A stretch of 64,000 nucleotides of DNA from a virus (IMGVR_UViG_3300038443_002533:64001-128000), one strand, 5' to 3'. Positions 2,743 through 63,900 are shown, counted from the stretch's first letter. Notes: a model not told the origin generated them from the letters alone. Program-made: numbers and translations.

Positions 2743-3324
2743 ATGCACCTCGATCCGGTTACCCGAGATTTGACCCGCCTCATCGACGACATCGATCAAA
2801 ACTTCACCCGCGCCAGCATCAACAACGCAGTGGTGCTCGAATCGTTTTTCGTTGAAGTGTTCCTGCCGATGTTCGCCGGTGACGCCAATCCGCCGCACAA
2901 AGTCACCCCGGAAATGTGGATGAACGTCGCGCGTGGGCCGTTCAACGAAGTTACGGTGGTCAATGCCGCCAACGAAGTGTTGTTCACGGTTCCCGCCTTG
3001 TGCAGCCAAGAAGCCATCAAGCCGCTCGACGGTACGCGCCAAGACGCCCACATGCCGTCGCTATCGGGTCCGCTGCAAGCGGCCAGCATGTACGCGGGTC
3101 ATGGTCAAAACGCCGTCCAGAACTTCATCGCCCGTGAACTCACCAGCCGTGCGTTCATGTTCCGTACCAACACCATGTCGCAGCCGAACATCGAACGGTG
3201 GAACGCGATCTTCACGCGTTATAACCGCCCTCTTTTACCCACAACCGCCACTGCGGCGGCTGCCGCCACCTCCAGCCATGCCGACCATCTATCCCGAGAC
3301 AGCGACGAATTCGACCCCCTCTGA
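2743..3324 (+). CDS. Conserved hypothetical protein
   Basis: 193 aa, SD AAGGA, typical codon usage. Confidence 0.65.
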   Translation: MHLDPVTRDLTRLIDDIDQNFTRASINNAVVLESFFVEVFLPMFAGDANPPHKVTPEMWMNVARGPFNEVTVVNAANEVLFTVPALCSQEAIKPLDGTRQDAHMPSLSGPLQAASMYAGHGQNAVQNFIARELTSRAFMFRTNTMSQPNIERWNAIFTRYNRPLLPTTATAAAAATSSHADHLSRDSDEFDPL

Positions 3325-4552
3325 CACCGCCCCGCTGCAACTGCGCCGTTTTAAAACCGGCGGGTTCTATTACGCGGTCTTCAGTGACATTCACTTTGGC
3401 CATAACCGTAATCCCGCCTCCCGTATTGCTGCCAACTGGATGTTGGCTTTACCCGATGATGCTGAGACCGCCAGCCTGGATGTGATCTTTATCGCCGGGG
3501 ATTTGTTTGATAACCTGATGATGTTCAACGACGCCGATATCTTCGAAGTCAAACTCTTCATCAGCTATCTGCTCAAACTGTGCAAAAAGCACAACATCAA
3601 GTTACGCATCCTGGAAGGCACGCCGCTGCACGATCGAGCCCAGTCCAAGTACGTGCCGATGGAAAACCAGATCAACGAGATCGGCGCGGATTTGAAGTAC
3701 ATCGACACCATCGATATCGAATACATCGAGGACCTCGGGATCCATGTGTTGTATATCCCGGATGAACCACCGGGTGGCTCGGGTCCGACGCTGCACACGG
3801 TGAAAGACTTGCTGCGCGCCCGAGGCATCGAACAAGTTGATATCGCGATCATGCACGGGTTGTTCCGCTTCCAGATCGAATACGTCGACAGTTCGATCAC
3901 CCACGACGAGCAAGAGTATCTGAAAATCGTCAAGCACAACATCAGCATCGGGCATGACCACACCGCCAAGAGCTTTGAGCAAGACGGCCATGGGATCTAT
4001 GTCCAAGGTTCGTTCGACCGCTTGGGGCATGGCTACGAAACCCCCAAAGGGCATATGCGCTTTAAGTGGATGCCGGATGGCTCGTGGCAAGTGCGCTTTA
4101 TCGAGAACACCCGCGCCATGCGCTTCGATACGCTCGATTGTACCGGCCTGTCGTTGGAAGACACGTATGCGTTGATCAACCAACGCGTCGGGGAATTACC
4201 TGACTTTTCCCATATCCGCATCAAAGCCGAAGCCGGGCATCCGGTGTTCAGTAACATGGAAGTGTTGCTGCGCATGGCGCCGCTGTTGAATTGGAAAAAG
4301 GAACCGGTACGGGACAAGACCAAAGCGATTGCGCCCGTGGCCGAAACCGATACACGTTTTGTGCCGATCCGCATCACTCCGGACAACATCGCCAGTTTGA
4401 TCTTGGAAAAGATCGCCAGCGAAGGCGCCTCTGGTGCGATTATGGACGCCTCGGTGGAGTTGCTGCAAGATCTGTTTGGCGCACCCCCAGCCCCAACTCG
4501 ACCGGCCCTCCAACCCGCTTGGGGTGATGAAGAAGATGACCTAAGGAGGTAA
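3278..4552 (+). CDS. sbcD: SbcD/Mre11-like metallophosphoesterase nuclease
   Basis: FSDIHFG, IAGDLFD, EGTPLHD, MHG, IGHDH motifs; ATG 3278 preferred over ORF-track start 2933. Confidence 0.88.
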   Translation: MPTIYPETATNSTPSDTAPLQLRRFKTGGFYYAVFSDIHFGHNRNPASRIAANWMLALPDDAETASLDVIFIAGDLFDNLMMFNDADIFEVKLFISYLLKLCKKHNIKLRILEGTPLHDRAQSKYVPMENQINEIGADLKYIDTIDIEYIEDLGIHVLYIPDEPPGGSGPTLHTVKDLLRARGIEQVDIAIMHGLFRFQIEYVDSSITHDEQEYLKIVKHNISIGHDHTAKSFEQDGHGIYVQGSFDRLGHGYETPKGHMRFKWMPDGSWQVRFIENTRAMRFDTLDCTGLSLEDTYALINQRVGELPDFSHIRIKAEAGHPVFSNMEVLLRMAPLLNWKKEPVRDKTKAIAPVAETDTRFVPIRITPDNIASLILEKIASEGASGAIMDASVELLQDLFGAPPAPTRPALQPAWGDEEDDLRR

Positions 4553-4553
4553 G

Positions 4554-5423
4554 ATGGCGATAGAATACCAAACACAGGTGGCCAACAGCGCTGACCACCG
4601 GACCTTGGGTGTGCTCCCCTTGTCCGTCCCAACAGCGTTGGCGATCGAGCGCTTGTGTGGAATTCATCCGGATTTCCCGAACGAGTTTCACCAACCGCCG
4701 GTCAAAGCTTACAAAGAACTGTGGGTGAACCTGCGCACGCTGTACCGTAATTGCCTCGGTTCGATGTCGAAAGATATCGCGGACCGCATCTCATCCACGG
4801 AAATCGCTCAGATCGTGTATGAAGAGATGGCGATCATCCCGGACATGCTCCAGCACCATGTGGGCTACCCCGTCAAGGTCACGTATTACTTTAGCAAACT
4901 TAACCAATTGGAGCGCAAATACCCAGAAGCCGAACTACGGAAAGACAGCACCCCGAAACAACACCACAACCACCAGCGCTTGCTGGAGGTCATGAAAATC
5001 CTGGTGGCGGAGTGTCGCGACCAGTTTTTGGTGTTCGACGATCTGCCCCCAGGGGTCGCTGTCAAAACATTAATTTTAACGCACGTCGCTTATGATCTGT
5101 TGGCCGAAAAACATTTCGGTGAGTTGCACCTGATCGAGTCGCACACGGGTAAGATAAAGAACCGCGCCTTGTGGTACACCAAAATGTACGAAGGTAAGCT
5201 CTTGGCCCAGATTCCCTTTACGGAAGAACTGCTGCAAATCTTTGGTGATCTTGAAACCTTCTCCCCCCTGGATCACCGGATGCGCAAAGCGATTTTGCAA
5301 ATCGCGGAGAAACGTAACTGGAATGCCATGACCACCCGCGCTCGTATCTTGGACAATCTCAACGAATTGCCCAATCCAGCACATCTGCTCAAAGTCAAGA
5401 AAATTTTCAAGGTACTCATCTAA
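4554..5423 (+). CDS. Conserved hypothetical protein, possibly degenerate FEN/PIN-like fold
   Basis: 289 aa between sbcD and chmC; LWVNLRTLYRN and LILTHVAYDLL loosely echo FEN motifs but lack the acidic residues. Confidence 0.55.
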   Translation: MAIEYQTQVANSADHRTLGVLPLSVPTALAIERLCGIHPDFPNEFHQPPVKAYKELWVNLRTLYRNCLGSMSKDIADRISSTEIAQIVYEEMAIIPDMLQHHVGYPVKVTYYFSKLNQLERKYPEAELRKDSTPKQHHNHQRLLEVMKILVAECRDQFLVFDDLPPGVAVKTLILTHVAYDLLAEKHFGELHLIESHTGKIKNRALWYTKMYEGKLLAQIPFTEELLQIFGDLETFSPLDHRMRKAILQIAEKRNWNAMTTRARILDNLNELPNPAHLLKVKKIFKVLI

Positions 5424-5496
5424 AACGTAATGGAAAAATATCCATATACGCTATTGAATGTAGACCGCAACCCCTACCTCTTTTTAGGATGACAAC

Positions 5497-6285
5497 ATGG
5501 CTTATAACAACCAAGAGAAGGACAACCGTCCTGCCGCCCCCTTCGATCTGTTCGTGATGACGCTGTGGGCGCCGTCGACGGCTCCGGGCAAACGCGCAAT
5601 GTTCAAGGTCGAAGTCGACGCTGCTGGCCGCGTGACGTTCATGGTGCGTACGGGCGACCCGGCCGACAAAGAGAAAGCCAAAGACGGCGACGTCATCCGC
5701 ATGAAGCTGAACTTCTGGGATTTCGAGAAGGTCGTCAACCTGTTCGGCGACGTGGTGCGTGCCAAGGGCGAGATGAAGGTGGCGGTGGTCGAACAACAGT
5801 TCTTCCGCTTCAACAAGGAAACCAAACAACGCGAGCGTGTCGATACGCCGCGCGATGGCAACAAGCTGTTCTTCGTCAAGGATTCGGAAGGCAAGATCGC
5901 CGTCTCGCTGGTCCAGTACAACCGTCCGCAGATCGAATTCGGCTTCCTGGCCGAGCGTCCGGAATTCGTGTTCGCGCACGCCGACGGCACCAAGTTCAGC
6001 GATGCCGAGATGAGCCAATCGGGCGCCCGCGCCTACCACAAGCTGCTGGGCGAACTGCAATCGCGCATCCAATCCTCGCTGATCCGCCAACACCAGGTGC
6101 CGGACCAGTACAAACCGCCGTACGTGCCGCAGCAACAAGGTGGCGGCGGTAACGGCTACCAGAACCAAAACCGCGGTGGCGGCCAGGGCGGCGGTAGCGG
6201 TTACAACAACGGTGGCGGTCAAGCACGTCCGCAGCAAGCCGCGGTCGTGGCCGTCGATGACATGGACGACGATATCCCGTATTGA
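5497..6285 (+). CDS. chmC: ChmC-like (phiKZ gp67/Imp6) Whirly-type nucleic-acid-binding phage nucleus protein with SSB-like tail
   Basis: Immediately upstream of the gp68/PicA homologues; KDSEGKIAVSLVQYNRPQIEF and HADGTKFSDAE motifs; Gly/Gln/Asn-rich tail ending DDMDDDIPY. Confidence 0.75.
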   Translation: MAYNNQEKDNRPAAPFDLFVMTLWAPSTAPGKRAMFKVEVDAAGRVTFMVRTGDPADKEKAKDGDVIRMKLNFWDFEKVVNLFGDVVRAKGEMKVAVVEQQFFRFNKETKQRERVDTPRDGNKLFFVKDSEGKIAVSLVQYNRPQIEFGFLAERPEFVFAHADGTKFSDAEMSQSGARAYHKLLGELQSRIQSSLIRQHQVPDQYKPPYVPQQQGGGGNGYQNQNRGGGQGGGSGYNNGGGQARPQQAAVVAVDDMDDDIPY

Positions 6286-6303
6286 TGTGATCTAATTAGT
6301 ACC

Positions 6304-6331
6304 GCGCGGCTTTCGGGCCGCGTGGGCTATG
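6304..6331 (+). terminator. UUCG stem-loop followed by TATG(CC)
   Basis: GCGCGGC-TTTCGG-GCCGCGT then TATG 6328-6331; no T-tract. Confidence 0.6.
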
Positions 6332-6430: not shown

Positions 6431-8119
6431 GTGCGATTTCGAAAAGAGTATGCGCCGAAATCCTCCACAATCGTCATCGAACATGCTGGCCAAGAGCTGG
6501 TGTGGGATGTGAAGATTCTGGAACGCAGCAACAAAAAACCGCAGCGTGGGAAAGCGGAAGAGGATGACGGCATCGAGCGTTTGCCGTTTGATCCGTTCTT
6601 CCACGTCAACCAGTACCTCAACCAACTCCCCTTACAAAAACAAAACGATCTCTTCGAAGCCTATCGCAACATCCGCGAGATCTTGGAACCGTATGCGCAT
6701 GATTCGATCAAGGATCTGCGTAAGCGCATTCCGCCGTACCTGCAAAAGATCTTCCTGATCTGCCCGCCGGACGACGTGGCCAAGTGGGTGCACCTGACCC
6801 CGACCATCGTGTTCCCCAACGGCATCAGAGTGTACGACACGTACGAAGAATCGGCCGAACATGGCGAAGGCTTTGGCCTCCGCAACCGTCCCGCTGACGC
6901 CACCTACATCAAGGGGGATTACTGGGGCTTGGTGGTGCTGGTGATGTTGGCACGGTTGTTGGTGCCAGTTTGGGGCCAGTTCCTGGAAAACATCAACGAA
7001 GAAGTCAACAATCAGTTCAAGGAGATCTACGCGCTGCGTCTGGCCTCGAACACGGCGTTGACCATGACCGACGGCTACGCCCGCCTCGAAGCATACATCG
7101 GTCGGTATCTGACGCCGGAGAAATTCAAGAACTCGGCCATGGAAGGTTCGGTACCGCGTGAAGATGCACCGTTCCAAACCTTGGCGATCTTGATCGTGCG
7201 GCGTTTGGCCTGGGTGGACTTCTCCGGTAGCGATCCGAGCTTCTCGCTGATTGGTCGGGTCTACTCGTTCATCGAGCAGCATCTGGAAGGTGCCGATCGT
7301 CAGTTCAACGAACGGGTCAAACCGAAGATCCCGGAAAGCGGTGCTGGCGGGAGCGACCAAGAAAACCGGGCCTCGGTGTCGGAACTGATCAAGATCCGCG
7401 AACCGTATTCGGCCGGCGACTTAACCTTGCCGGAAGCCTGTGCCCGCAGCCCCGAGATGTTCTTGCCGCGTATGCATCCCGAGATGGATGAAACCTGGTT
7501 GCAACTCGGCCTCAAAGCCGTGGAACCGCTCAAGCGTCATCGGCCGCAGCAAGTCCAGTTTACCATCCTGCAAAACGTTCTGGGCGCCGAATGCCGGCAA
7601 CTCGATGGCCAGTGGGAAGTCGATCCCAAGTTCCGTGAACGCTGGGATGCATTGTTCCCGCCACGCGCTATCGACGAGATGAATCTGGTGGAAGACTTGA
7701 ACATGATGGCAGTCGGTACCGCGTTGCTGTGCTACAACGGCTTCTACGATATCGCTGCGATCATGACCGGCACCCCGGCCAAAGACCGTGAAGGCAATCC
7801 CCTGGGCAGCAGCCCACCCCCTGCTGAACTGACGGACGCCAACCTGGCGGCACTCGCCGCACAATTCCCTTACACCCAACGCAAGGAAGGAAAACGCCGC
7901 ACCGACAACCCGACCAGCCCCAAGCTGCCGAATGTCGCGGTGCGTTTGATCAATAACATCACCCAAGACGTGGCAAAATACCAGTGGCTCTTGAATCTCC
8001 CGCCGCAGTGGCTCAAACAACTGCCGGGACATGATGGTAGCCGCCGCTATGTTGTCAAGCCCGATTTTCGCAACCGCTTTGCGGAACTCGCAACCCGCAT
8101 CGCTACCCGTGCTCTTTAA
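6431..8119 (+). CDS. Non-virion RNA polymerase sigma-like subunit (phiKZ gp68-like)
   Basis: 562 aa helical protein in the canonical slot between chmC and picA; GTG start with SD AAGGAG. Confidence 0.7.
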   Translation: MRFRKEYAPKSSTIVIEHAGQELVWDVKILERSNKKPQRGKAEEDDGIERLPFDPFFHVNQYLNQLPLQKQNDLFEAYRNIREILEPYAHDSIKDLRKRIPPYLQKIFLICPPDDVAKWVHLTPTIVFPNGIRVYDTYEESAEHGEGFGLRNRPADATYIKGDYWGLVVLVMLARLLVPVWGQFLENINEEVNNQFKEIYALRLASNTALTMTDGYARLEAYIGRYLTPEKFKNSAMEGSVPREDAPFQTLAILIVRRLAWVDFSGSDPSFSLIGRVYSFIEQHLEGADRQFNERVKPKIPESGAGGSDQENRASVSELIKIREPYSAGDLTLPEACARSPEMFLPRMHPEMDETWLQLGLKAVEPLKRHRPQQVQFTILQNVLGAECRQLDGQWEVDPKFRERWDALFPPRAIDEMNLVEDLNMMAVGTALLCYNGFYDIAAIMTGTPAKDREGNPLGSSPPPAELTDANLAALAAQFPYTQRKEGKRRTDNPTSPKLPNVAVRLINNITQDVAKYQWLLNLPPQWLKQLPGHDGSRRYVVKPDFRNRFAELATRIATRAL

Positions 8120-8142: not shown

Positions 8143-9807
8143 ATGTCGTACAACGATCCGTACAACCACCAGCCGTTCAACCCGCATCAAGCCTACAGCG
8201 ATCCGCTCGAACAACGCATCCAGCCGACCTTCCCCTCGAAGGCCACGCAGATTCAAGTGGAAGAACTGATGGTGGTTCCAACGGGCACGTACCAGCCGCA
8301 ATTCCGCCGTCCGTTCATCACCGACCTGAACAACGGCAACATGCAGCAAGTGCATGACGTGGTCAGCCACGCTTACCGGGAATTCCGCCAACGCCAGGAA
8401 TTCGGCGCGATTGACCCGATGGCACACTACCAAGTCAATCCGATGGATCTGGCGCCGGTGTCGGCCAACTTCATCGCACCGTCGTCCTGGCAAGAAGCGC
8501 CGGCGCGGCTGAACCTGGCTGCCGGCCTGCACATGCAAACCGCACGCTTCCTCCTGCGTATCGCGGTGTATCGCCATGGCGCGGTGGAACCGCAGCGCTT
8601 CCTCATGACGGGTTACACCAACTTCATGGGGATCATCCAAAAGCAGATGCGTGCTGGCCTGAACAACAGCGACTTCACGCTCGATCCGCAGATGGAACTC
8701 ACCATCAACTCGGTGATGGAAGTGGTGAAGGGTACCGTGAACGGTCCGTATGGGCCGGAAACGACCTGGCACATGGTGAGCGTGCACCAGGTGCTGTTCG
8801 ACACCAACTTCCAGAACGTGGACAACCCGGCGGTGATCCGTATGCGGCCGTACGAAGTGGCAGCGACGCTGTCGCGCATGAACGATCCGGCCCTGAGCAA
8901 GCGCGGTATCAGCACCACCGATACCCGCAACATCCAGACCGGCTCGCCAGTGTTTTCGGATATTCATAACCTCAATCCGAATAACTACATGGCCACGATC
9001 ATCGGCGGCTTGACCACCGGGCGGGATATCGCAGCCAAGTCGGGCGGTAACTCGCTGCTGGAACCGTACACCCAAGCCACGCGGATCGTGCGCGATCCGT
9101 CCACCCAGGACGATCCGTTCCTGAAAGCGTTGGCCTCGTTCGGTAGCGGGTTGGTGTCGCCGACCTTCAAGTTCCGTGACCTGCTGATGCTCGATCCGAA
9201 CGCCGAAAGTGACCAGGTGCTGAAGATCAACCTGCGTGACTACAACGCGTACAAGAATCGCCGTGGTGAAAACATGGCGGTCGGGGAAGACACCTCGGCT
9301 TGGCATGGTCAGGATCTTCAGACCCAGTGGGCGGTGCAGATCAACAACATCCTGTCGCCGCTGATGATGGATCTGGGCCTGCGTCGCCTCGATCTGTTCG
9401 CGTCGAACCTGCACGGTGAAACCATCTGTCGCGCCACCAACGGGCTGCCATTCATGCCGGGTGTGAATCCGGTGCCGCAACTCGAATCACTGAGCCATTT
9501 GTTCTACGAACAGTTCGTGCGTCCGGTGACCGGTGATGGCCGCTGGCATGGTTACAGTATCGACATCGCGGCCGATCTGTATGGCGATATCGTCACCAAC
9601 CTCACCATCGACGACAAGCCCCTGCGTCCGTATGTGTACCCGGCCTTCATGTCGGCGGGTATGCCACCGGTGCTGACCTCGCAACCCGACACGCTCGACC
9701 AGGTCGCGACCCAGTTCTACAATCTGCAACAGGCCGTCACCCCGGCGATCGACCCGCTGATTACGGACCTGGCATACCAAGCCACGCCGTCGGGCACCCG
9801 CTACTAA
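8143..9807 (+). CDS. picA: PicA/Imp1-like phage nucleus protein-import factor (phiKZ gp69-like)
   Basis: 554 aa; TGTYQPQFRRPF, TGYTN, MRPYEV motifs recalled for the family; synteny. Confidence 0.7.
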   Translation: MSYNDPYNHQPFNPHQAYSDPLEQRIQPTFPSKATQIQVEELMVVPTGTYQPQFRRPFITDLNNGNMQQVHDVVSHAYREFRQRQEFGAIDPMAHYQVNPMDLAPVSANFIAPSSWQEAPARLNLAAGLHMQTARFLLRIAVYRHGAVEPQRFLMTGYTNFMGIIQKQMRAGLNNSDFTLDPQMELTINSVMEVVKGTVNGPYGPETTWHMVSVHQVLFDTNFQNVDNPAVIRMRPYEVAATLSRMNDPALSKRGISTTDTRNIQTGSPVFSDIHNLNPNNYMATIIGGLTTGRDIAAKSGGNSLLEPYTQATRIVRDPSTQDDPFLKALASFGSGLVSPTFKFRDLLMLDPNAESDQVLKINLRDYNAYKNRRGENMAVGEDTSAWHGQDLQTQWAVQINNILSPLMMDLGLRRLDLFASNLHGETICRATNGLPFMPGVNPVPQLESLSHLFYEQFVRPVTGDGRWHGYSIDIAADLYGDIVTNLTIDDKPLRPYVYPAFMSAGMPPVLTSQPDTLDQVATQFYNLQQAVTPAIDPLITDLAYQATPSGTRY

Positions 9808-9861: not shown

Positions 9862-11184
9862 ATGAGTGACAAACATGACATGTTCGATGTCTACCGTTCG
9901 CTGCTGAAGCTGGCGCGGATGGAAACCACCGTCGAAGGCTTCGTGCGGATGGAGATCGAGCCGGGGGAATACATCCCTGTCACCGCCAAGGACCGCAAGC
10001 TGGTGGTACTGCCGCTGGATGAACGGCTGCGTGACATCAAAGTCAGTGACTACGAAGTCTTCCACCTGCTGCGTGAAAACGGCCCGAAGGATTCCGACCT
10101 GCTGTCGCGCTATCGCCACTGGCTGATCAACCGCTTCAACCTGGTGATCGGCGGCCTGGGCACGGTGATCCTGAAGTTCGTCGCCGACAAGGAAATCACC
10201 AAGCGCCTGTCGCCGCATCAGAAAGACTTCCTGGAAATGGTGGTGGATGTCGACAAAGGTTCGCTCGATCGCTGGAACGCCCTGGCCGAAGTGGCAGCCA
10301 AGCCGAACCAAATTCAACAAGTCTTCGTCTCGCTGTACCTGCGCCAAGCGGCAGTGCTGAAGGGTCAAAGCTACCACCGCGTGGCCACGGTCAACTTCCC
10401 GTTCTACGATGAGCTGGTGAAACTGGACGCTGAAGCGCAGGAATACAAGACCGCCCCGAAGACCAAGAAGCCGCCCAAGCCGTCCGATGAAATCTTCGGG
10501 TGCGAAGTCAAGGTCAAGGATCGTGAACCGTTCCTCGGCCTGATGCGCTACCTGGTCCCGAGCCTGGATCTCCCGCATCAGTACGATGTCGGTTCCAACT
10601 CGCCGATCAGCCCGAGCCTGGACGCCATGATGCGCGCATGGTTGCCGCTCGCCAGCCACCTGAATGCGATCATCGAACGGCTCACCAAGGTGGACCCGGA
10701 AGCGGATCGGATCCTGGATGGCCTGATGCTGGATCTGAGCTGGGCGCCGGCGTTCGAAAACCTCGACGCCATGTGGCACCAAATCCGTTCGATCCCGCTG
10801 CAAGCCACGGGCGTCATCAACGAACCGCCACCGGAAGCGCTCGACCCGCGTAAGCGTGTTCAAGCACAGCCTGCGGCGCCCGTCACGGCCAGCTACCCGG
10901 CCAACAGCGCACCGTGGGATCCGCAACCGGCACCGGCCTACCAGCCGGCACCGAGCTACGGCGTGCCGTATGGCGGCCAACCGGCACCGAGTGGCGGCAG
11001 TGGTCAGATGTCGGTGAATGACCTGAACCGCATGCTGGGTGGTGGTCGTTCGGCTGCACCGTACCAAGCACCGCCGCAGCAAGCGTACTACCCGGGCCAA
11101 CCGGCCTACAGCACCGGCTACTCGCAACCGAGTTATCCGAACAACGGTGGCTACCCGCCCCCGAACGTACCGCGCCGTTATTGA
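9862..11184 (+). CDS. Conserved core protein (phiKZ gp70-like) with Pro/Tyr/Gln-rich C-terminal tail
   Basis: 440 aa, follows picA; last ~110 aa are low-complexity P/A/Y/Q/G. Confidence 0.7.
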   Translation: MSDKHDMFDVYRSLLKLARMETTVEGFVRMEIEPGEYIPVTAKDRKLVVLPLDERLRDIKVSDYEVFHLLRENGPKDSDLLSRYRHWLINRFNLVIGGLGTVILKFVADKEITKRLSPHQKDFLEMVVDVDKGSLDRWNALAEVAAKPNQIQQVFVSLYLRQAAVLKGQSYHRVATVNFPFYDELVKLDAEAQEYKTAPKTKKPPKPSDEIFGCEVKVKDREPFLGLMRYLVPSLDLPHQYDVGSNSPISPSLDAMMRAWLPLASHLNAIIERLTKVDPEADRILDGLMLDLSWAPAFENLDAMWHQIRSIPLQATGVINEPPPEALDPRKRVQAQPAAPVTASYPANSAPWDPQPAPAYQPAPSYGVPYGGQPAPSGGSGQMSVNDLNRMLGGGRSAAPYQAPPQQAYYPGQPAYSTGYSQPSYPNNGGYPPPNVPRRY

Positions 11185-58236: not shown

Positions 58237-60936
58237 ATGCTTACTTACGATTCTGGTTTGCAATCTGCTTTGGCCGCGGCCGTGAGCAAGGTCGACTGGT
58301 GCAACACCCTGCTCACGCAGCTGGGGAGCGCCTTGACCATCCGCTGCAAACGCAGTGCGGACGCTTCGTCCACCACCGTATTCGATACTGGTACGGAATT
58401 CTTCAGCGCGTCGATCTCCAGCGCGCTGGGCATGAGCGGCGGTCAAATCGCCAAATTTGGCAACATCCAAAACGCCACAATCCGCATGGCACAAGACCTG
58501 AGTTCGGGCGCCAGTGTGCTTCGGATCGAAGGCAATGGGCACTGGATTCAAGGCACGCTGGGTCTGAGCAACAGCTCGGCCGACTTTAAGGTCACCCAAA
58601 GCCCGACCGCCAAGACCGGTATGGCCTTCGGTACGATCAGCATTTCCGCGCCGCGTAGCATGCCTTCCGGCACCGGTCCGGTGGCGCCGTCGCTCGACGC
58701 GAATGCGCCGTGGTCCATCGTCTTCGAAGACTGGTCGATTCCATCGACGCCCAAAGTGGTGAAAACCATCAATCTGGATACCCGCGCAGACGACTACGTC
58801 TACCAGGATTCGGAACTGGCGGCTGAAATCGGCGACGTGCGCATGACCCAAAGCTCGCAGACCATCGTGTATGGCCAGTTCGAGTTTGGCGTCACGATGC
58901 TGTCGGTGCATGGTGGCCTGAATCTGGAAAACCCCGGCACCCCGGTGCACCAGATCATCATCTCGCACAAGCCGTACGGTACCTGGGCGTCGTATCCGTT
59001 CTCGGACACGTTCCGCGTCGATCGCGATACCACGTTCCCGAAACCATACAAGATCAAAGTACTCAAGGCCGATGGTACCATCCTCAAGACCTTCGAGATG
59101 CGCGACGGTCTGGCCATCAACGATCCGAGCCTGTCGCAAGGCTGGGGTCCGGGTTACCCGCTGCCGATGCGCCCGCACTTCCAATGCGGTCAATGGCATT
59201 TCTGGCAATCGGCCAAACTGAAGTATAGCTCGAATGCGCTGAAGTATTTCCCGGGCGTGACCGATCATTTCATGCGGGATTCCATCGCCAAAGCTGGTGC
59301 CTCCACCAACGGCAACATCCCGCTGGCGTATGGTGGTCAGTGGAACTCGACGCTGCAATGGCACGGCCTGCCGCAGTGGCCGACCGAGTATTACACCGAC
59401 GGCAACCCGCATGCGGGCGAAACCTACGACGACCCGTATCTGTACGATGTCAAGACCTATCACGGTTATGAAGGCCACCACGGCGGTATCACGGGCTGGG
59501 ATATTGAGCCGGGCTCCATCAGTGGTCACGACTGGTACATCGGCCCGGGTGGACCACGCGCTGACCGCGGTGCGCTGCATACGCCATTCGTACGTTACTT
59601 CTCGCGACCGAACGGGTCCCGCCTTAAAGGTAATGTGCCAAACCGCACAATGCTGGACGCATATAACCACGGGTATTTCCACCATTCGCACCACATGTTC
59701 ACGGTGGACGTGCAAAAGCTGTTGATGCCACCGAAAGAGTGGATGCGTGACGGTACGATTTCGTTCGGCTTTGCGTATTACGGCTCGAACAACACTTATT
59801 CGGCAGGCGGTCTGCCGCGCACGGTGGCGCTGAAAACGCTGCCGAACCAGAGTAACTGGCCGGCACCGGTGCGTGATGGCCATAAAGGTTTCTTCCATGG
59901 TTGGGAAGTCGACCAACACCACTCGTACGTGGCGCCAGGTCTGGCAACGATTTTCTGCAATAGCCCAGCGCACACGATCAGCGGCTTCATGCGTCTGTAT
60001 GCGCACGTCTGTGGTCAGTTGGGGGATGCTTACCCGACGTCTTGCATGCCGGGTCTGTTCCTGTCGCGCGTGCACGCATGGCGCACCTGGCAGCTGGTGA
60101 TCGCATGGAAGACCGCGACGACTCACGCTTCGGGTATCGATCGGGAAACCATCGAGCGTCGTCTGCAAGTCGAACTGGAAACGGTGTACGACCAGGTCTA
60201 CGTGCCAGCGATGGTCAACAACTCGACGGACCCGACCATGATTGGTATTCGTACCTTCGGTCAACCGGTGTCGGTGCAATACGGTACCAGCGTCGATGGC
60301 TGGCAGGGTTACAAGTGGTACCGTGGTCTGAGCGACTCCAAATCGGGTTATTTCGCCGCCGTGCTGGCAGTGATGCGTCAAACCGGCTGCATGGCTGCCA
60401 TGCGCGCCCGTTCGTCCAAGTGCGATATCGCGATTCGTTTCATCATCGACCGCATGGACCAAGACAGCCTGCTGTCGCTGTACTACACCAAGGGTCGCTA
60501 CGAAAGCAATTTCGTGTACTCGAACCGCATCGCTTCGCAAGGTTCCGCCACGGCGGACACGGCCGCAAGTCTGCCGGATCCGACGATGTATTCGGGATGG
60601 CCGGAATGGGTGACGAACAATCCACAAAACGGCCAAGAGACGTTGATGACGGACGTGAATGGCAATATCACGTGTGCCAATCTGGATGCTGTTACGACAG
60701 CACGCTTCCAGTGGGCTTTCGTCCGGCGTGATTTCTTCTCGGATATTCCGGCTCCAATGGACAATGGCACCAATATCGTGACCAGCACTTGCAACATGGT
60801 GCAAGGTTGGATGGACACCCTCGACACCAAAGTCAAAGGTATCGCAGCGCCGTACTCGCAATCCGGTGCCGATATGCAGTATGCCTGGCCACAACTCGGT
60901 ATCATCAAAGCTCCGGCAACACTGACTCCTATCTAA
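58237..60936 (+). CDS. Large aromatic-rich protein, putative spike/carbohydrate-active enzyme
   Basis: 899 aa; N-domain resembles the C-domain of 54757-58173; W/Y/H-rich body; no family recognised. Confidence 0.65.
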   Translation: MLTYDSGLQSALAAAVSKVDWCNTLLTQLGSALTIRCKRSADASSTTVFDTGTEFFSASISSALGMSGGQIAKFGNIQNATIRMAQDLSSGASVLRIEGNGHWIQGTLGLSNSSADFKVTQSPTAKTGMAFGTISISAPRSMPSGTGPVAPSLDANAPWSIVFEDWSIPSTPKVVKTINLDTRADDYVYQDSELAAEIGDVRMTQSSQTIVYGQFEFGVTMLSVHGGLNLENPGTPVHQIIISHKPYGTWASYPFSDTFRVDRDTTFPKPYKIKVLKADGTILKTFEMRDGLAINDPSLSQGWGPGYPLPMRPHFQCGQWHFWQSAKLKYSSNALKYFPGVTDHFMRDSIAKAGASTNGNIPLAYGGQWNSTLQWHGLPQWPTEYYTDGNPHAGETYDDPYLYDVKTYHGYEGHHGGITGWDIEPGSISGHDWYIGPGGPRADRGALHTPFVRYFSRPNGSRLKGNVPNRTMLDAYNHGYFHHSHHMFTVDVQKLLMPPKEWMRDGTISFGFAYYGSNNTYSAGGLPRTVALKTLPNQSNWPAPVRDGHKGFFHGWEVDQHHSYVAPGLATIFCNSPAHTISGFMRLYAHVCGQLGDAYPTSCMPGLFLSRVHAWRTWQLVIAWKTATTHASGIDRETIERRLQVELETVYDQVYVPAMVNNSTDPTMIGIRTFGQPVSVQYGTSVDGWQGYKWYRGLSDSKSGYFAAVLAVMRQTGCMAAMRARSSKCDIAIRFIIDRMDQDSLLSLYYTKGRYESNFVYSNRIASQGSATADTAASLPDPTMYSGWPEWVTNNPQNGQETLMTDVNGNITCANLDAVTTARFQWAFVRRDFFSDIPAPMDNGTNIVTSTCNMVQGWMDTLDTKVKGIAAPYSQSGADMQYAWPQLGIIKAPATLTPI

Positions 60937-60950
60937 AGGGTTAAAGGAAC

Positions 60951-63900
60951 ATGGCAACTATCACTAAAACCATCGGTAGTGCCGCGGGTCGTGATTATTC
61001 AACGATCCAGGCGTTTATCGATTCGATCCCAGCCGACTTGGTGGCGGCTGGGTTTTGCTACACGGGTCTGGTGTACAACGATTCGGAGTTTAACGACACC
61101 ACGGGTAAAGTCAACATCGCCAGCAAAAACACTGACTCGACCCACTTCATTACGTTGCAGTGCGCACCGGGTCAATCGTTTAGCACGAACCCCAATCGTG
61201 CCAACAATGCGCTGTGGTATAGCCAAGCCAACGGGGTGGCGATTCATGCGATCCTGAACAGCTCCACGACGTTTAACATCGCGGTCCCGTACACCGTGAT
61301 CGATGGTTTCCAGATCAATGCCACGGGCACAGGCGCCATCGCGATCACGGCCAATGCAACCGGCGTGATGGTCAAGAACTGTCTCTTTGCTGGCCAGCCC
61401 GCAAGCTCGATCGCTTACGGTCTGACTCAGGTCGCCGGCGGCGCAACGATGCAGGATTGCTTGGTGCTCGTCACCGCGTCGGGTGCAGGTGCGGGTATCA
61501 AGATGACGAACGGCACGGTGATCAACTGTACGGTGGCTAAACCGCCGCAGTTCTCGCTGGGTGCAAGCGAAAAGTCCCAAGCCATCTCGTTCAACTACGG
61601 CACCAACGTGGTGAAGAACTGCGCCCTGTTTGGTTTCGCCAATCAGGATGCGACACCCAACAGCTACAGTGCGTCGGATTACAACGCCACGGACTGGAAC
61701 CAAGCGCCAGGTGGCACGGCGGCTACGCATAACCTGCTGAGCCTGGTGTACGCGAACCAGTTCGTTAACAACGCGAACGACTTCCGTCTGAAGGCCGGTA
61801 GCGACCTGATCGGTAAAGCGATCAACCTGTCGGCGACTTACCAAACCACCGACATCATCGGTACGGCGCGGCAAACCAACTGGGACATCGGTGCTTACGC
61901 GGCGATTACCCCGGCCAATGCGCTGTCGCTGTCGGGTCCGACGCTGGGTCAAGTCAACCAAGTGTCGAGCAACTTCACGGTGGCGGCCAATGGTCAAGTC
62001 AGTGGTTCGGTGACGGTCACCCCGAGCGACGGCGGTAAAGGGGGCACGTTTAACCCTTCGTCGTTCACGATGACGGGTGTGAGCCCGTCGGTGACGTTTA
62101 CCTACACCCCGTCGCAAACGGGCAACATCAACATCAGCATCAGTAACAACGGTACGCTGGCCAACCCGGCCGCGATCACGTACAACTCGGTGCTGCCGGC
62201 TACGCAAGTGATGTTGTCGGGCCCGGCTCTGGCACGTGCGGGTGTGCAAAGCGCGAACTTCACGGCCCAACTGGACGGCTATGTGGCTACCGCTGTCAAG
62301 GTGATCCCGAACGACAATGGTGATGGCGGTACCTTCACCCCGGTGTTCGTGATGCTGGACAGCAACACCCCGTCGGCGACCTTCACCTACACGGGTGCGT
62401 CAGGTGGTGTGAAGACCATCGCCACCACCAATGATTCGAGCCTGACGAACCATTCGGTGTCGATCACGGAAAAACCGCCGATCGTCCCTGTCCCGACCCC
62501 GAGCACCCCGACCCTGGTGGTGAAATCGATCGGTACCGGTAAAGACTTCGCGACGATTAAAGCGTTTACCGATTTCGCTGCCGCGTTTGACTTGACGGCG
62601 AATCAGCAATCGCTGCTGGGTGAAGTGTACGAAAGCTCGACGGTGTCGGCCCAATCTTCGTTCTCCGCGAAGAACCCGACCAGTCAGTTCAACGTCACAC
62701 TGCAACCAGTGCCCGGCACCAGTGCCAACTATCTGGATAAAGGCTATCCGGCCGATTACGGTACCGAAGGTATCGAACTGACGATCAGTAACCAATGGTT
62801 GGTGGGCGCTGGCACGGTGCTGCAAGACTTCCGTTTCAACACCACGGGATCTTCAGGCTGCATCACCATGGGTGGTGGTAACAGTTTGTTCTACCCAGTG
62901 TTCCAGCGCAACCGTGTTAAAGCCAGCGGTACCGCGATAACCTCCGTATGGGCCGGCCAGTATGTTGGTCCGGGTGTCGTGACGGACTGTTTGTTCATCC
63001 TTGATGACGGCAGTACTTCGACGGCGCTGAATGGTCAGCAAGCAAAACTGACGTGCAAACGTAACACCTTTGTTCGCAAAGGCAGTGCGTCAGGTTACCT
63101 GCTGTCGTTCAATGCCAACCAAACCCCGTCGCTGGGTACAATCATCGCGAACAACGTATTCATCAACGCGGGCAATACACCGGTCAATTATCTGAACCTG
63201 GTCGCAGCGGCGAACGTATACAACAACTATACGGACAACGGTCAAGCCTCCCCTATCGCCGGTATCACCACGGTGTTGGCGGGCTCGGGAACGAACCTGG
63301 TGCGCAACACCACCAGTGACTTCCGTCCGGATGATGCGGGTGCGCTGATTGGTCATGCGTCGGAAGGCGCGATCGATATGCTGGACTTGTACAGTGTCGG
63401 TCGCGGTGGTACGCCGGACGTGGGTGCTATCCAAGGCACCGTCATCAACGTGCTACCGGTGGTGGCGATCTCGGCACAAGACGTGAACTGTCAACGAATC
63501 GTGGTGACGGGTACGACGCGTTACACCCCGACCTCGGGTACGGCGTTGCTGTTGCCGGATCCGAACAACCCGAATGGCGCGGTGCAACAAGGCCCGACCA
63601 ATGTCGTGTTGTCGGCAGGTGCGTTCAGCGTGCAGTGGGACAACGTACCGGCGGGGAATTACCTGACCCCGGTCGTGACGCTGGTCAACAGCAGCGGCTA
63701 CAACCGTGTGCAAACTGGTGGCGATGTTATCAACATCATCCCGGTGTCGGCCGCCATCGTTGCAGCCGAAGCATCACCCACCCAAGGCAATGCCCCGGTC
63801 ATCACGTTCGATAACCGTCGTGGCTTCGACAACAACACCTTCAACATCGGTGGTACGGTCGATACCCAAGGCGATCCGAACTGCTCGATCAAGGTGTACG

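Follow-up and report, generated by a model that had tools for sequence, protein, structure and literature searches.

An SSB-type C-terminal tip on a ChmC/Imp6 orthologue of predicted Whirly/PUR-like fold from an uncultured nucleus-forming jumbo phage

ChmC, also named Imp6, is an essential, abundant, and conserved protein of nucleus-forming jumbo phages that may act in the export of mRNA, in the import of proteins, or in both. The orthologue described here ends like a bacterial SSB, with an acidic tip that reads DDDIPY. Its gene lies in a window of 64,000 nucleotides, which is the whole stretch of DNA analyzed and corresponds to bases 64001-128000 of a 272,470-bp phage genome. The source, an IMG/VR virus record rated complete, carries direct repeats at its termini and has 54.8% G+C. 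The original prediction held that a ChmC-like protein of non-OB fold mimics or has captured the tail of bacterial SSB and that it could recruit or sequester DNA-processing enzymes of the host or select cargo for PicA import. Counted from the first base of the window, the locus is arranged as follows.

4554..5423 (+): upstream neighbor, phiKZ gp66-like (phrog_3229; PHROG match and gene order)
5486..5489 (+): ribosome-binding site AGGA, 7 nt 5' of the ATG (read from the sequence)
5497..6285 (+): chmC/imp6 orthologue, 262 aa plus TGA stop (ORF list; phrog_3284)
6297..6329 (+): GC-rich hairpin with a UUCG loop, just 3' of the chmC stop (-26.9 kcal/mol, z -2.3)
6431..8119 (+): downstream neighbor, phiKZ gp68-like non-virion RNA polymerase subunit (phrog_3209; PHROG and gene order)
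8143..9807 (+): PicA/Imp1 orthologue, phiKZ gp69-like, two genes downstream (phrog_3141; PHROG and gene order)
9862..11184 (+): phiKZ gp70-like gene (phrog_3520; PHROG and gene order)

The reading frame is exactly as first described, ending in GGGQARPQQAAVVAVDDMDDDIPY after a Gly/Gln/Asn-rich stretch. Its start is sound: AGGA is found 7 nt upstream, and M1-A2-Y3 are invariant among 20 homologues. The protein matches phrog_3284 with E=6.6e-25, its residues 4-261 covering positions 3-255 of the 256 in the profile, to which phiKZ gp67 is matched with E=6e-80. Pairwise, the two proteins are only weakly related by BLASTP (24% identity, E=0.012). Queried by tblastn, 50,697 phage records gave no match to the protein, a sequence search of the PDB returned noise only, and no Pfam family was found at E<=0.1, except for a low-complexity match under its cut-off. 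Because the tblastn search is empty and the PDB search is noise, identification relies on the PHROG profiles together with gene order and fold. Between 4554 and 11184, the five genes belong to phrogs 3229/3284/3209/3141/3520, an order identical to that of phiKZ gp66-gp70. Herein, phiKZ gp67 is ChmC (PMC11077065), alias Imp6, and gp69 is Imp1/PicA (bioRxiv 10.1101/2024.03.27.586873, from which the role of gp68 as a subunit of the nvRNAP is also taken). Thus, the protein was rightly called ChmC-like, as it shares phrog_3284 and its gene order with phiKZ gp67, and PicA was rightly placed two genes away. Elsewhere in the genome, a homologue of the chimallin phiKZ gp54 (ChmA) is encoded at G000 60674-62296 (E=1.5e-15, 24% identity, residues 52-568). 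Among cultured phages, Burkholderia phage FLC9 is the closest relative, with only 27% identity in the gp68-like protein. The gene is the ChmC/Imp6 orthologue of an uncultured nucleus-forming jumbo phage and a divergent new member of a characterised family.

The hairpin behind the stop codon is kept after chmC in four related IMG/VR contigs, and changes on both sides of the stem preserve the pairing, as for example in CCGCGCGGC/GCCGCGTGG versus CCACGCAGC/GCTGCGTGG. No T-run follows it at 6297-6329. It probably marks the transcript end, or stabilises the transcript, of a highly expressed single-gene unit. Two further frames of the neighborhood can be mentioned. A long frame at 2933-4552 (+), 5' of the gp66-like gene, contains metallophosphoesterase motifs (DIHFGH, GDLFD, GHDH) and occupies the place of the SbcD-like nuclease gp65 of phiKZ; its true start probably lies further downstream, because the listed GTG overlaps a 193-aa ORF at 2743-3324 (phrog_5171). 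Antisense to chmC runs a frame of 273 codons, 5416-6237 (-), in all likelihood a shadow frame arising in a G+C-rich gene.

The protein is divided into a basic N-terminal domain and an acidic C-terminal tail as listed below.

5497..6096 (+): predicted N-terminal Whirly/PUR-like nucleic-acid-binding domain, residues 1-200, pI 9.2 (AF2 and structural matches)
6097..6228 (+): disordered Gly/Gln/Asn-rich linker, residues 201-244 (pLDDT <50 and composition)
6229..6282 (+): acidic C-terminal region, residues 245-262, pI 4.05 (sequence)
6265-6282 (+): tip DDDIPY (sequence and family consensus over 169 homologues)

An AlphaFold2 model, based on 113 homologues, has a mean pLDDT of 83; values exceed 90 over the greater part of residues 20-190 and drop under 50 for most of the final 45 residues. 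The N-terminal domain consists of two copies of a beta-beta-beta-(beta)-alpha element. In a structural search against representatives, the best matches are the potato Whirly protein StWhy2 (Z 9.3), PBF-2 (Z 9.1), MRP1/MRP2 of T. brucei (Z 8.0), and Pur-alpha (Z 6.2); Foldseek likewise places Pur-alpha and MRP on top with a probability of 0.94-1.0 (Pur-alpha 0.99-1.0). No OB-fold protein is found among the top rows of structural matches to the model, and the protein has no match to PF00436, the OB-fold ssDNA-binding domain. The fold, thus, is of the Whirly rather than the OB type, as had been predicted, and agrees with the Whirly assignment published for PhiPA3 ChmC (PMC11077065). The likeness to Whirly proteins is structural only, since the sequence does not belong to the Pfam Whirly family. 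With this predicted fold, the idea that the N-terminal domain is that of an ordinary OB-fold SSB falls away. Of the six RNA-binding positions of PhiPA3 ChmC (K30, R35, R44, K48, K59, and R63), four are basic in the query (K32, K37, R51, and K70) and the other two are T47 and V66, in an alignment of ~25% identity.

The tail of the query comprises 63 residues, including 15 Gly, 11 Gln, and 5 Asn. Residues ~205-262 are predicted to be disordered (low pLDDT, AF2), and the model, in which the tail has low confidence, docks it nowhere. The tail of E. coli SSB, read from NC_000913, ends in ...GGAQSRPQQSAPAAPSNEPPMDFDDDIPF, as had been quoted correctly. Aligned with it, the query tail reaches a score of 90, which none of 2000 composition-preserving shuffles attains. 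Without its last nine residues, the linker still scores 69, a value that is reached by 42 of 2000 shuffles. By this comparison, the resemblance to the E. coli SSB tail is more than chance. A C-terminal tip of the type acidic-hydrophobic-Pro-aromatic occurs in only one of the 2591 ORFs of >=50 aa in the phage's own genome. All 20 close homologues (51-86% identity) end in D[DE/T]D[DE][IV]PY with P and Y invariant, and in four related loci the tip codons show a few synonymous differences (GAT/GAC, TAT/TAC).

Across the ChmC family, a profile search of 1.84 billion representatives identified 339 homologues at E<=1e-3, the best 150 of which were retrieved. The tip was counted over 169 homologues with a mean identity of ~21%. 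Because an HMM of residues 1-200 alone matches 169 of 169 at E<1e-3, homology in these proteins extends to the folded domain, and they are no look-alikes of the tail. Counted from the C terminus, their last six positions are occupied as follows.

Position -6: D 95 of 169
Position -5: D 112 of 169
Position -4: D 127 of 169
Position -3: I 94, L 30, V 16, F 11 of 169
Position -2: P 144 of 169
Position -1: F 101, Y 40, W 10, M 10 of 169

The six positions, thus, read D-D-D-[ILV]-P-[FYW] with the consensus DDDIPF, which is the SSB-Ct hexapeptide that is highly conserved among bacterial SSBs (PMC5872125). Comparison of the C termini of homologues, hence, bears out a tip that matches SSB-Ct and is conserved. 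The penultimate proline (P261) is among only eight positions that are >=90% conserved in an alignment of 113 sequences with 21% mean column identity, and the linker conserves its composition (G 32%, N 14%) but not its sequence. On a tree of the N-terminal domain only, the terminal residue interchanges between F and Y at least 14 times, which indicates that selection keeps an aromatic residue at the very C terminus. Judged from these alignments, the features kept by selection are the terminal aromatic residue, preceded by the proline, an aliphatic residue, and three acidic residues. On the same tree, the 24 members of the query clade (support 95) all end in Tyr. By these counts, an SSB-type tip is present in most of the ChmC family, and the query carries the variant DDDIPY rather than DDDIPF. 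The tail is, thus, real as originally described, but what had been taken as a trait of this protein is one of the whole family, with the Tyr variant belonging to the clade of the query.

The cultured phages differ in how closely they follow this consensus. Tips are degenerate in phiKZ (...SAFDEDMPSF), PhiPA3 (...SGFDDEIPNF), 201phi2-1 (...ELASFDW), and Goslar (...AFDGLAF), and nearer to it in Erwinia phage pEa_SNUABM_37 (...FDSDIPF), Salmonella phage SA002 (...FDESIPF), and FLC9 (...GSEDLPF). Because the best-studied phages carry degenerate tips, the exact SSB-Ct chemistry is not required for the essential ChmC. In PMC11077065, the C terminus is described as an N/G-rich region of ~40 residues followed by an S/D/E-rich 'electronegative cluster' of ~15 residues. 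That the ChmC papers call this region only 'S/D/E-rich' may be owed to the degenerate tips of the cultured models. In the searchable literature, beyond which many subscription papers lie, no earlier mention of an SSB-type tip on ChmC was found, and the word SSB is absent from PMC11077065, from the Rhc preprint, and from two reviews. An SSB-type tip on a protein of predicted Whirly fold would, thus, be a feature without prior mention in the literature searched, with one precedent in kind, DUF669.

How the family acquired its tail, by capture or by convergence, is a separate matter. Since the tip is found across the ChmC family, the trait is old. When 5.8 billion proteins were searched with the tail only (residues 200-262), close relatives of ChmC alone were recovered and no SSB at E<=10, and the 'QARPQQ' match to E. 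coli SSB is not kept even among close homologues. Capture of the tail from a host SSB, which had been offered as one origin, could therefore not be shown. Upstream of the tip, a sub-motif [RK][PSQ]x0-3[AP] occurs in 49 of 147 homologues versus 20.3 +/- 3.7 in shuffled tails, an excess that relatedness could inflate. It lies 9-32 residues before the C terminus (...SRPAP..., ...QRSAP...), in the query at residues ~243-250 (QARPQQAA), and this basic-Pro/Ala element recalls SRPQQSAPAAP of E. coli SSB. Its recurrence could be owed to common descent or to a common constraint, or it could be an artefact of how closely the sequences are related.

What is known of ChmC function comes from cultured phages. 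According to PMC11077065, PhiPA3 ChmC is a homotetramer that binds ssRNA at 58 nM and ssDNA at 184 nM. When residues 204-251 are removed, tetramers and RNA binding are kept, whereas condensates and localisation to the shell are lost. Condensate formation has been held responsible for the phenotypes of C-terminal deletion. As this deletion took linker and tip together, its phenotypes are not assignable to the tip. In phiKZ, no disruptive transposon insertions are found in chmC.

Identity, fold, disorder, and the family-wide conservation of the tip are established in this analysis; a docking function of the tip, as well as its targets, is inferred. The explanation that we prefer, at about even chances, is that ChmC combines three SSB-like modules on a different fold, with a tip that alternates between binding to its own protein and docking of partners. 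The modules are the basic Whirly/PUR domain, the disordered Gly/Asn/Gln-rich linker, and the acidic tail ending D-D-D-I-P-Tyr. In the absence of nucleic acid, the tip would fold back onto the basic surface of its own or a neighboring tetramer. Such fold-back may tune nucleic-acid binding by autoinhibition and supply valence for condensates; the C-terminal peptide of SSB behaves in this way toward the OB fold, as does the C-terminal Glu-Trp of plant Whirlies toward the Whirly domain. Nucleic acid would then displace the tip, so that the terminal aromatic residue and carboxylate could dock into pockets of partner proteins. Enzymes would thereby gather on the RNA or ssDNA that is coated by ChmC, either at the phage nucleus or within it. 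Against this explanation speak the degenerate tips of the best-studied phages and the tail that the AF2 model docks nowhere. Also, SSB-Ct contacts are generally weak, and the Imp1-Imp6 complex withstands gel filtration, which suggests an interface larger than a hexapeptide.

A wider role may be proposed tentatively, at clearly less than even chances. The canonical SSB family and those of T4 gp32, DUF669, and the Enc34/T7 type (PF00436, PF08804, PF05037, and PF10991) were searched for and none was found in this genome; PF00436 was also found in none of phiKZ, PhiPA3, 201phi2-1, Goslar, and FLC9. Because no canonical SSB family is found in the genome, ChmC is a candidate for the ssDNA-coating protein as well. 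ChmC could possibly be the SSB equivalent of the phage nucleus, the tip of which plugs into SSB-Ct-type pockets of phage replication or transcription enzymes or of imported host enzymes such as TopA, perhaps together with Imp1/PicA. The coating of RNA or ssDNA would herein be coupled to the recruitment of enzymes or to the licensing of import. Candidate partners of the tip are Imp1/PicA, which binds directly in phiKZ, ChmB and an nvRNAP subunit, both of which occur in ChmC pull-downs (PMC11077065), Rhc, and imported TopA. Rhc, the RNase H-clamp DNA polymerase subunit, is only a lead as a direct receptor: by the Rhc preprint, Goslar Rhc pull-downs contain ChmC, which speaks for it, and gp67 is absent from the listed partners in an AF2 screen of Rhc against all phiKZ proteins, which speaks against it. 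In the present genome, an RNase H domain (PF00075, E=6e-23) is found at the start of a 512-codon frame outside the window (G000:C1:261646-262206). This frame probably encodes the Rhc subunit as described in Goslar.

Three other explanations were weighed against the alternating tip, each of which we regard as unlikely. The first takes the acidic end as a generic patch of charge that tunes solubility or condensates and docks nothing specifically, its likeness to SSB-Ct being incidental. Such a patch corresponds to the 'electronegative cluster' published for the S/D/E-rich end (PMC11077065), and it agrees with the predicted disorder of the tail and with the degenerate tips of the studied phages. 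Charge, however, leaves unexplained why [ILV]-Pro-aromatic is conserved position by position at the very C terminus, where 144 of the 169 homologues have Pro and 161 end in Met or an aromatic residue. In addition, the consensus equals the SSB hexapeptide exactly. On balance, this explanation is improbable.

Similarly doubtful is a second explanation, mimicry of the host, in which the tip engages the host enzymes that bind SSB (ExoI, RecQ, PriA, RNase HI, topoisomerases, and others) and either titrates them off the host DNA or passes some of them to import by Imp1/PicA. That a family of ~21% identity retains the bacterial hexapeptide is explained most easily by a highly conserved receptor, which may be either the SSB-binding enzymes of the host or enzymes of the phage with such pockets by inheritance. 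The abundance, early expression, and partly cytoplasmic location of ChmC (PMC11077065) also fit, as do the direct binding of Imp6 to Imp1 and the import of TopA, a topoisomerase of the host, into the nucleus of phiKZ (bioRxiv 10.1101/2024.03.27.586873). Against mimicry stands that the accessible texts of the ChmC paper and the Rhc preprint name no host partner of ChmC. Also, the tips of the P. aeruginosa and E. coli phages depart from DDDIPF, which was read for E. coli and is highly conserved in bacteria (PMC5872125). Such drift of the Pseudomonas and E. coli phage tips would point to a phage receptor that co-evolves or to a relaxed requirement.

A third explanation sees in the tip an address label that anchors ChmC to the shell-associated Imp1/PicA, to ChmB, or to ChmA and, thereby, sets its localisation at the nuclear periphery. 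Herein, the loss of shell localisation in PhiPA3 ChmC without its C terminus is in favor, as is the pull-down of ChmB by GFP-ChmC (PMC11077065). Also in favor, phiKZ gp67/Imp6 binds Imp1 directly in a stable ~2:1 complex that survives gel filtration (bioRxiv 10.1101/2024.03.27.586873). The PhiPA3 deletion, however, removed the linker too, and Goslar ChmC without its C terminus still forms nuclear puncta, though with wild-type protein present (PMC11077065). The tag of Imp6 in the complex with Imp1 is given ambiguously, as 'gp67-FLAG' and as 'FLAG-Imp6' (bioRxiv 10.1101/2024.03.27.586873). If it was C-terminal, a free carboxylate would not be needed for the complex. On balance, we hold an address label to be rather improbable as well.

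By far the weakest explanation, a diverged ordinary SSB of OB fold, has next to no probability: the SSB-like linker and tip and the lack of any other SSB found in the genome would fit it, but with a confident Whirly/PUR model, no OB-fold protein in the top structural rows, and no Pfam SSB match, it is refuted by the predicted fold.

Returning to the alternating tip, its terminal aromatic residue and proline offer a precise and small target by which effects of the tip could be separated from those of the linker. From an SSB-type tip, candidate partners can also be listed, and it hints at what may coat ssDNA in the nucleus of a phage without a detected canonical SSB family.

Compared with the ChmC/Imp6 proteins of Chimalliviridae (PhiPA3 gp61, phiKZ gp67, Goslar gp176, and 201phi2-1 gp123; phrog_3284), the query has the same PHROG, the same place between the gp66-like and the gp68/PicA genes, and the same Whirly/PUR-like fold prediction. 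As in these (PMC11077065), a disordered N/G-rich C-terminal region is followed by an acidic end. It differs from the studied members by an identity of ~24% to phiKZ gp67 and by a near-canonical tip DDDIPY in place of their degenerate ones, and from PhiPA3 ChmC by having two of the six RNA-binding positions non-basic.

With bacterial SSB (PF00436), the query shares the plan of a nucleic-acid-binding core, a disordered Gly/Gln-rich linker, and D-D-D-I-P-aromatic at the extreme C terminus. The core is tetrameric in SSB and in PhiPA3 ChmC, and the C-terminal region is needed for condensates in both E. coli SSB (PMC7584906) and PhiPA3 ChmC (PMC11077065). Condensates of E. coli SSB are driven by its tetrameric core, linker, and C-terminal peptide in concert; the peptide also docks 'at least 18' partners and binds the OB fold in competition with ssDNA (PMC7584906). 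Unlike bacterial SSB, the query has a Whirly/PUR core and a terminal Tyr instead of Phe, and PhiPA3 ChmC favors RNA over ssDNA (PMC11077065).

The best structural matches, StWHY1/PBF-2 and StWhy2 of the plant Whirly proteins and MRP1/MRP2 of T. brucei (Z 8.0-9.3), belong to tetrameric binders of single-stranded nucleic acid. The plant proteins have a conserved C-terminal acidic-aromatic pair, Glu-Trp, that touches a Lys of the Whirly domain; the pair lowers the binding of ssDNA, which rises when the Trp is mutated (PMC9070903). Unlike these, ChmC has a long low-complexity linker and carries its motif at the extreme C terminus.

The closest precedent in kind is found in prophage DUF669 proteins that end in DDDIPF (PMC13687109), which are phage-borne, described there as SSB-like, outside the canonical SSB family, and equipped with the bacterial SSB tip; for them, mimicry of host SSB interactions is proposed in the same paper. 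Unlike the query, they form an unrelated family and come from temperate phages without a nucleus. Besides these proteins, ChmC would be a further case of an SSB tail outside the canonical SSB family.
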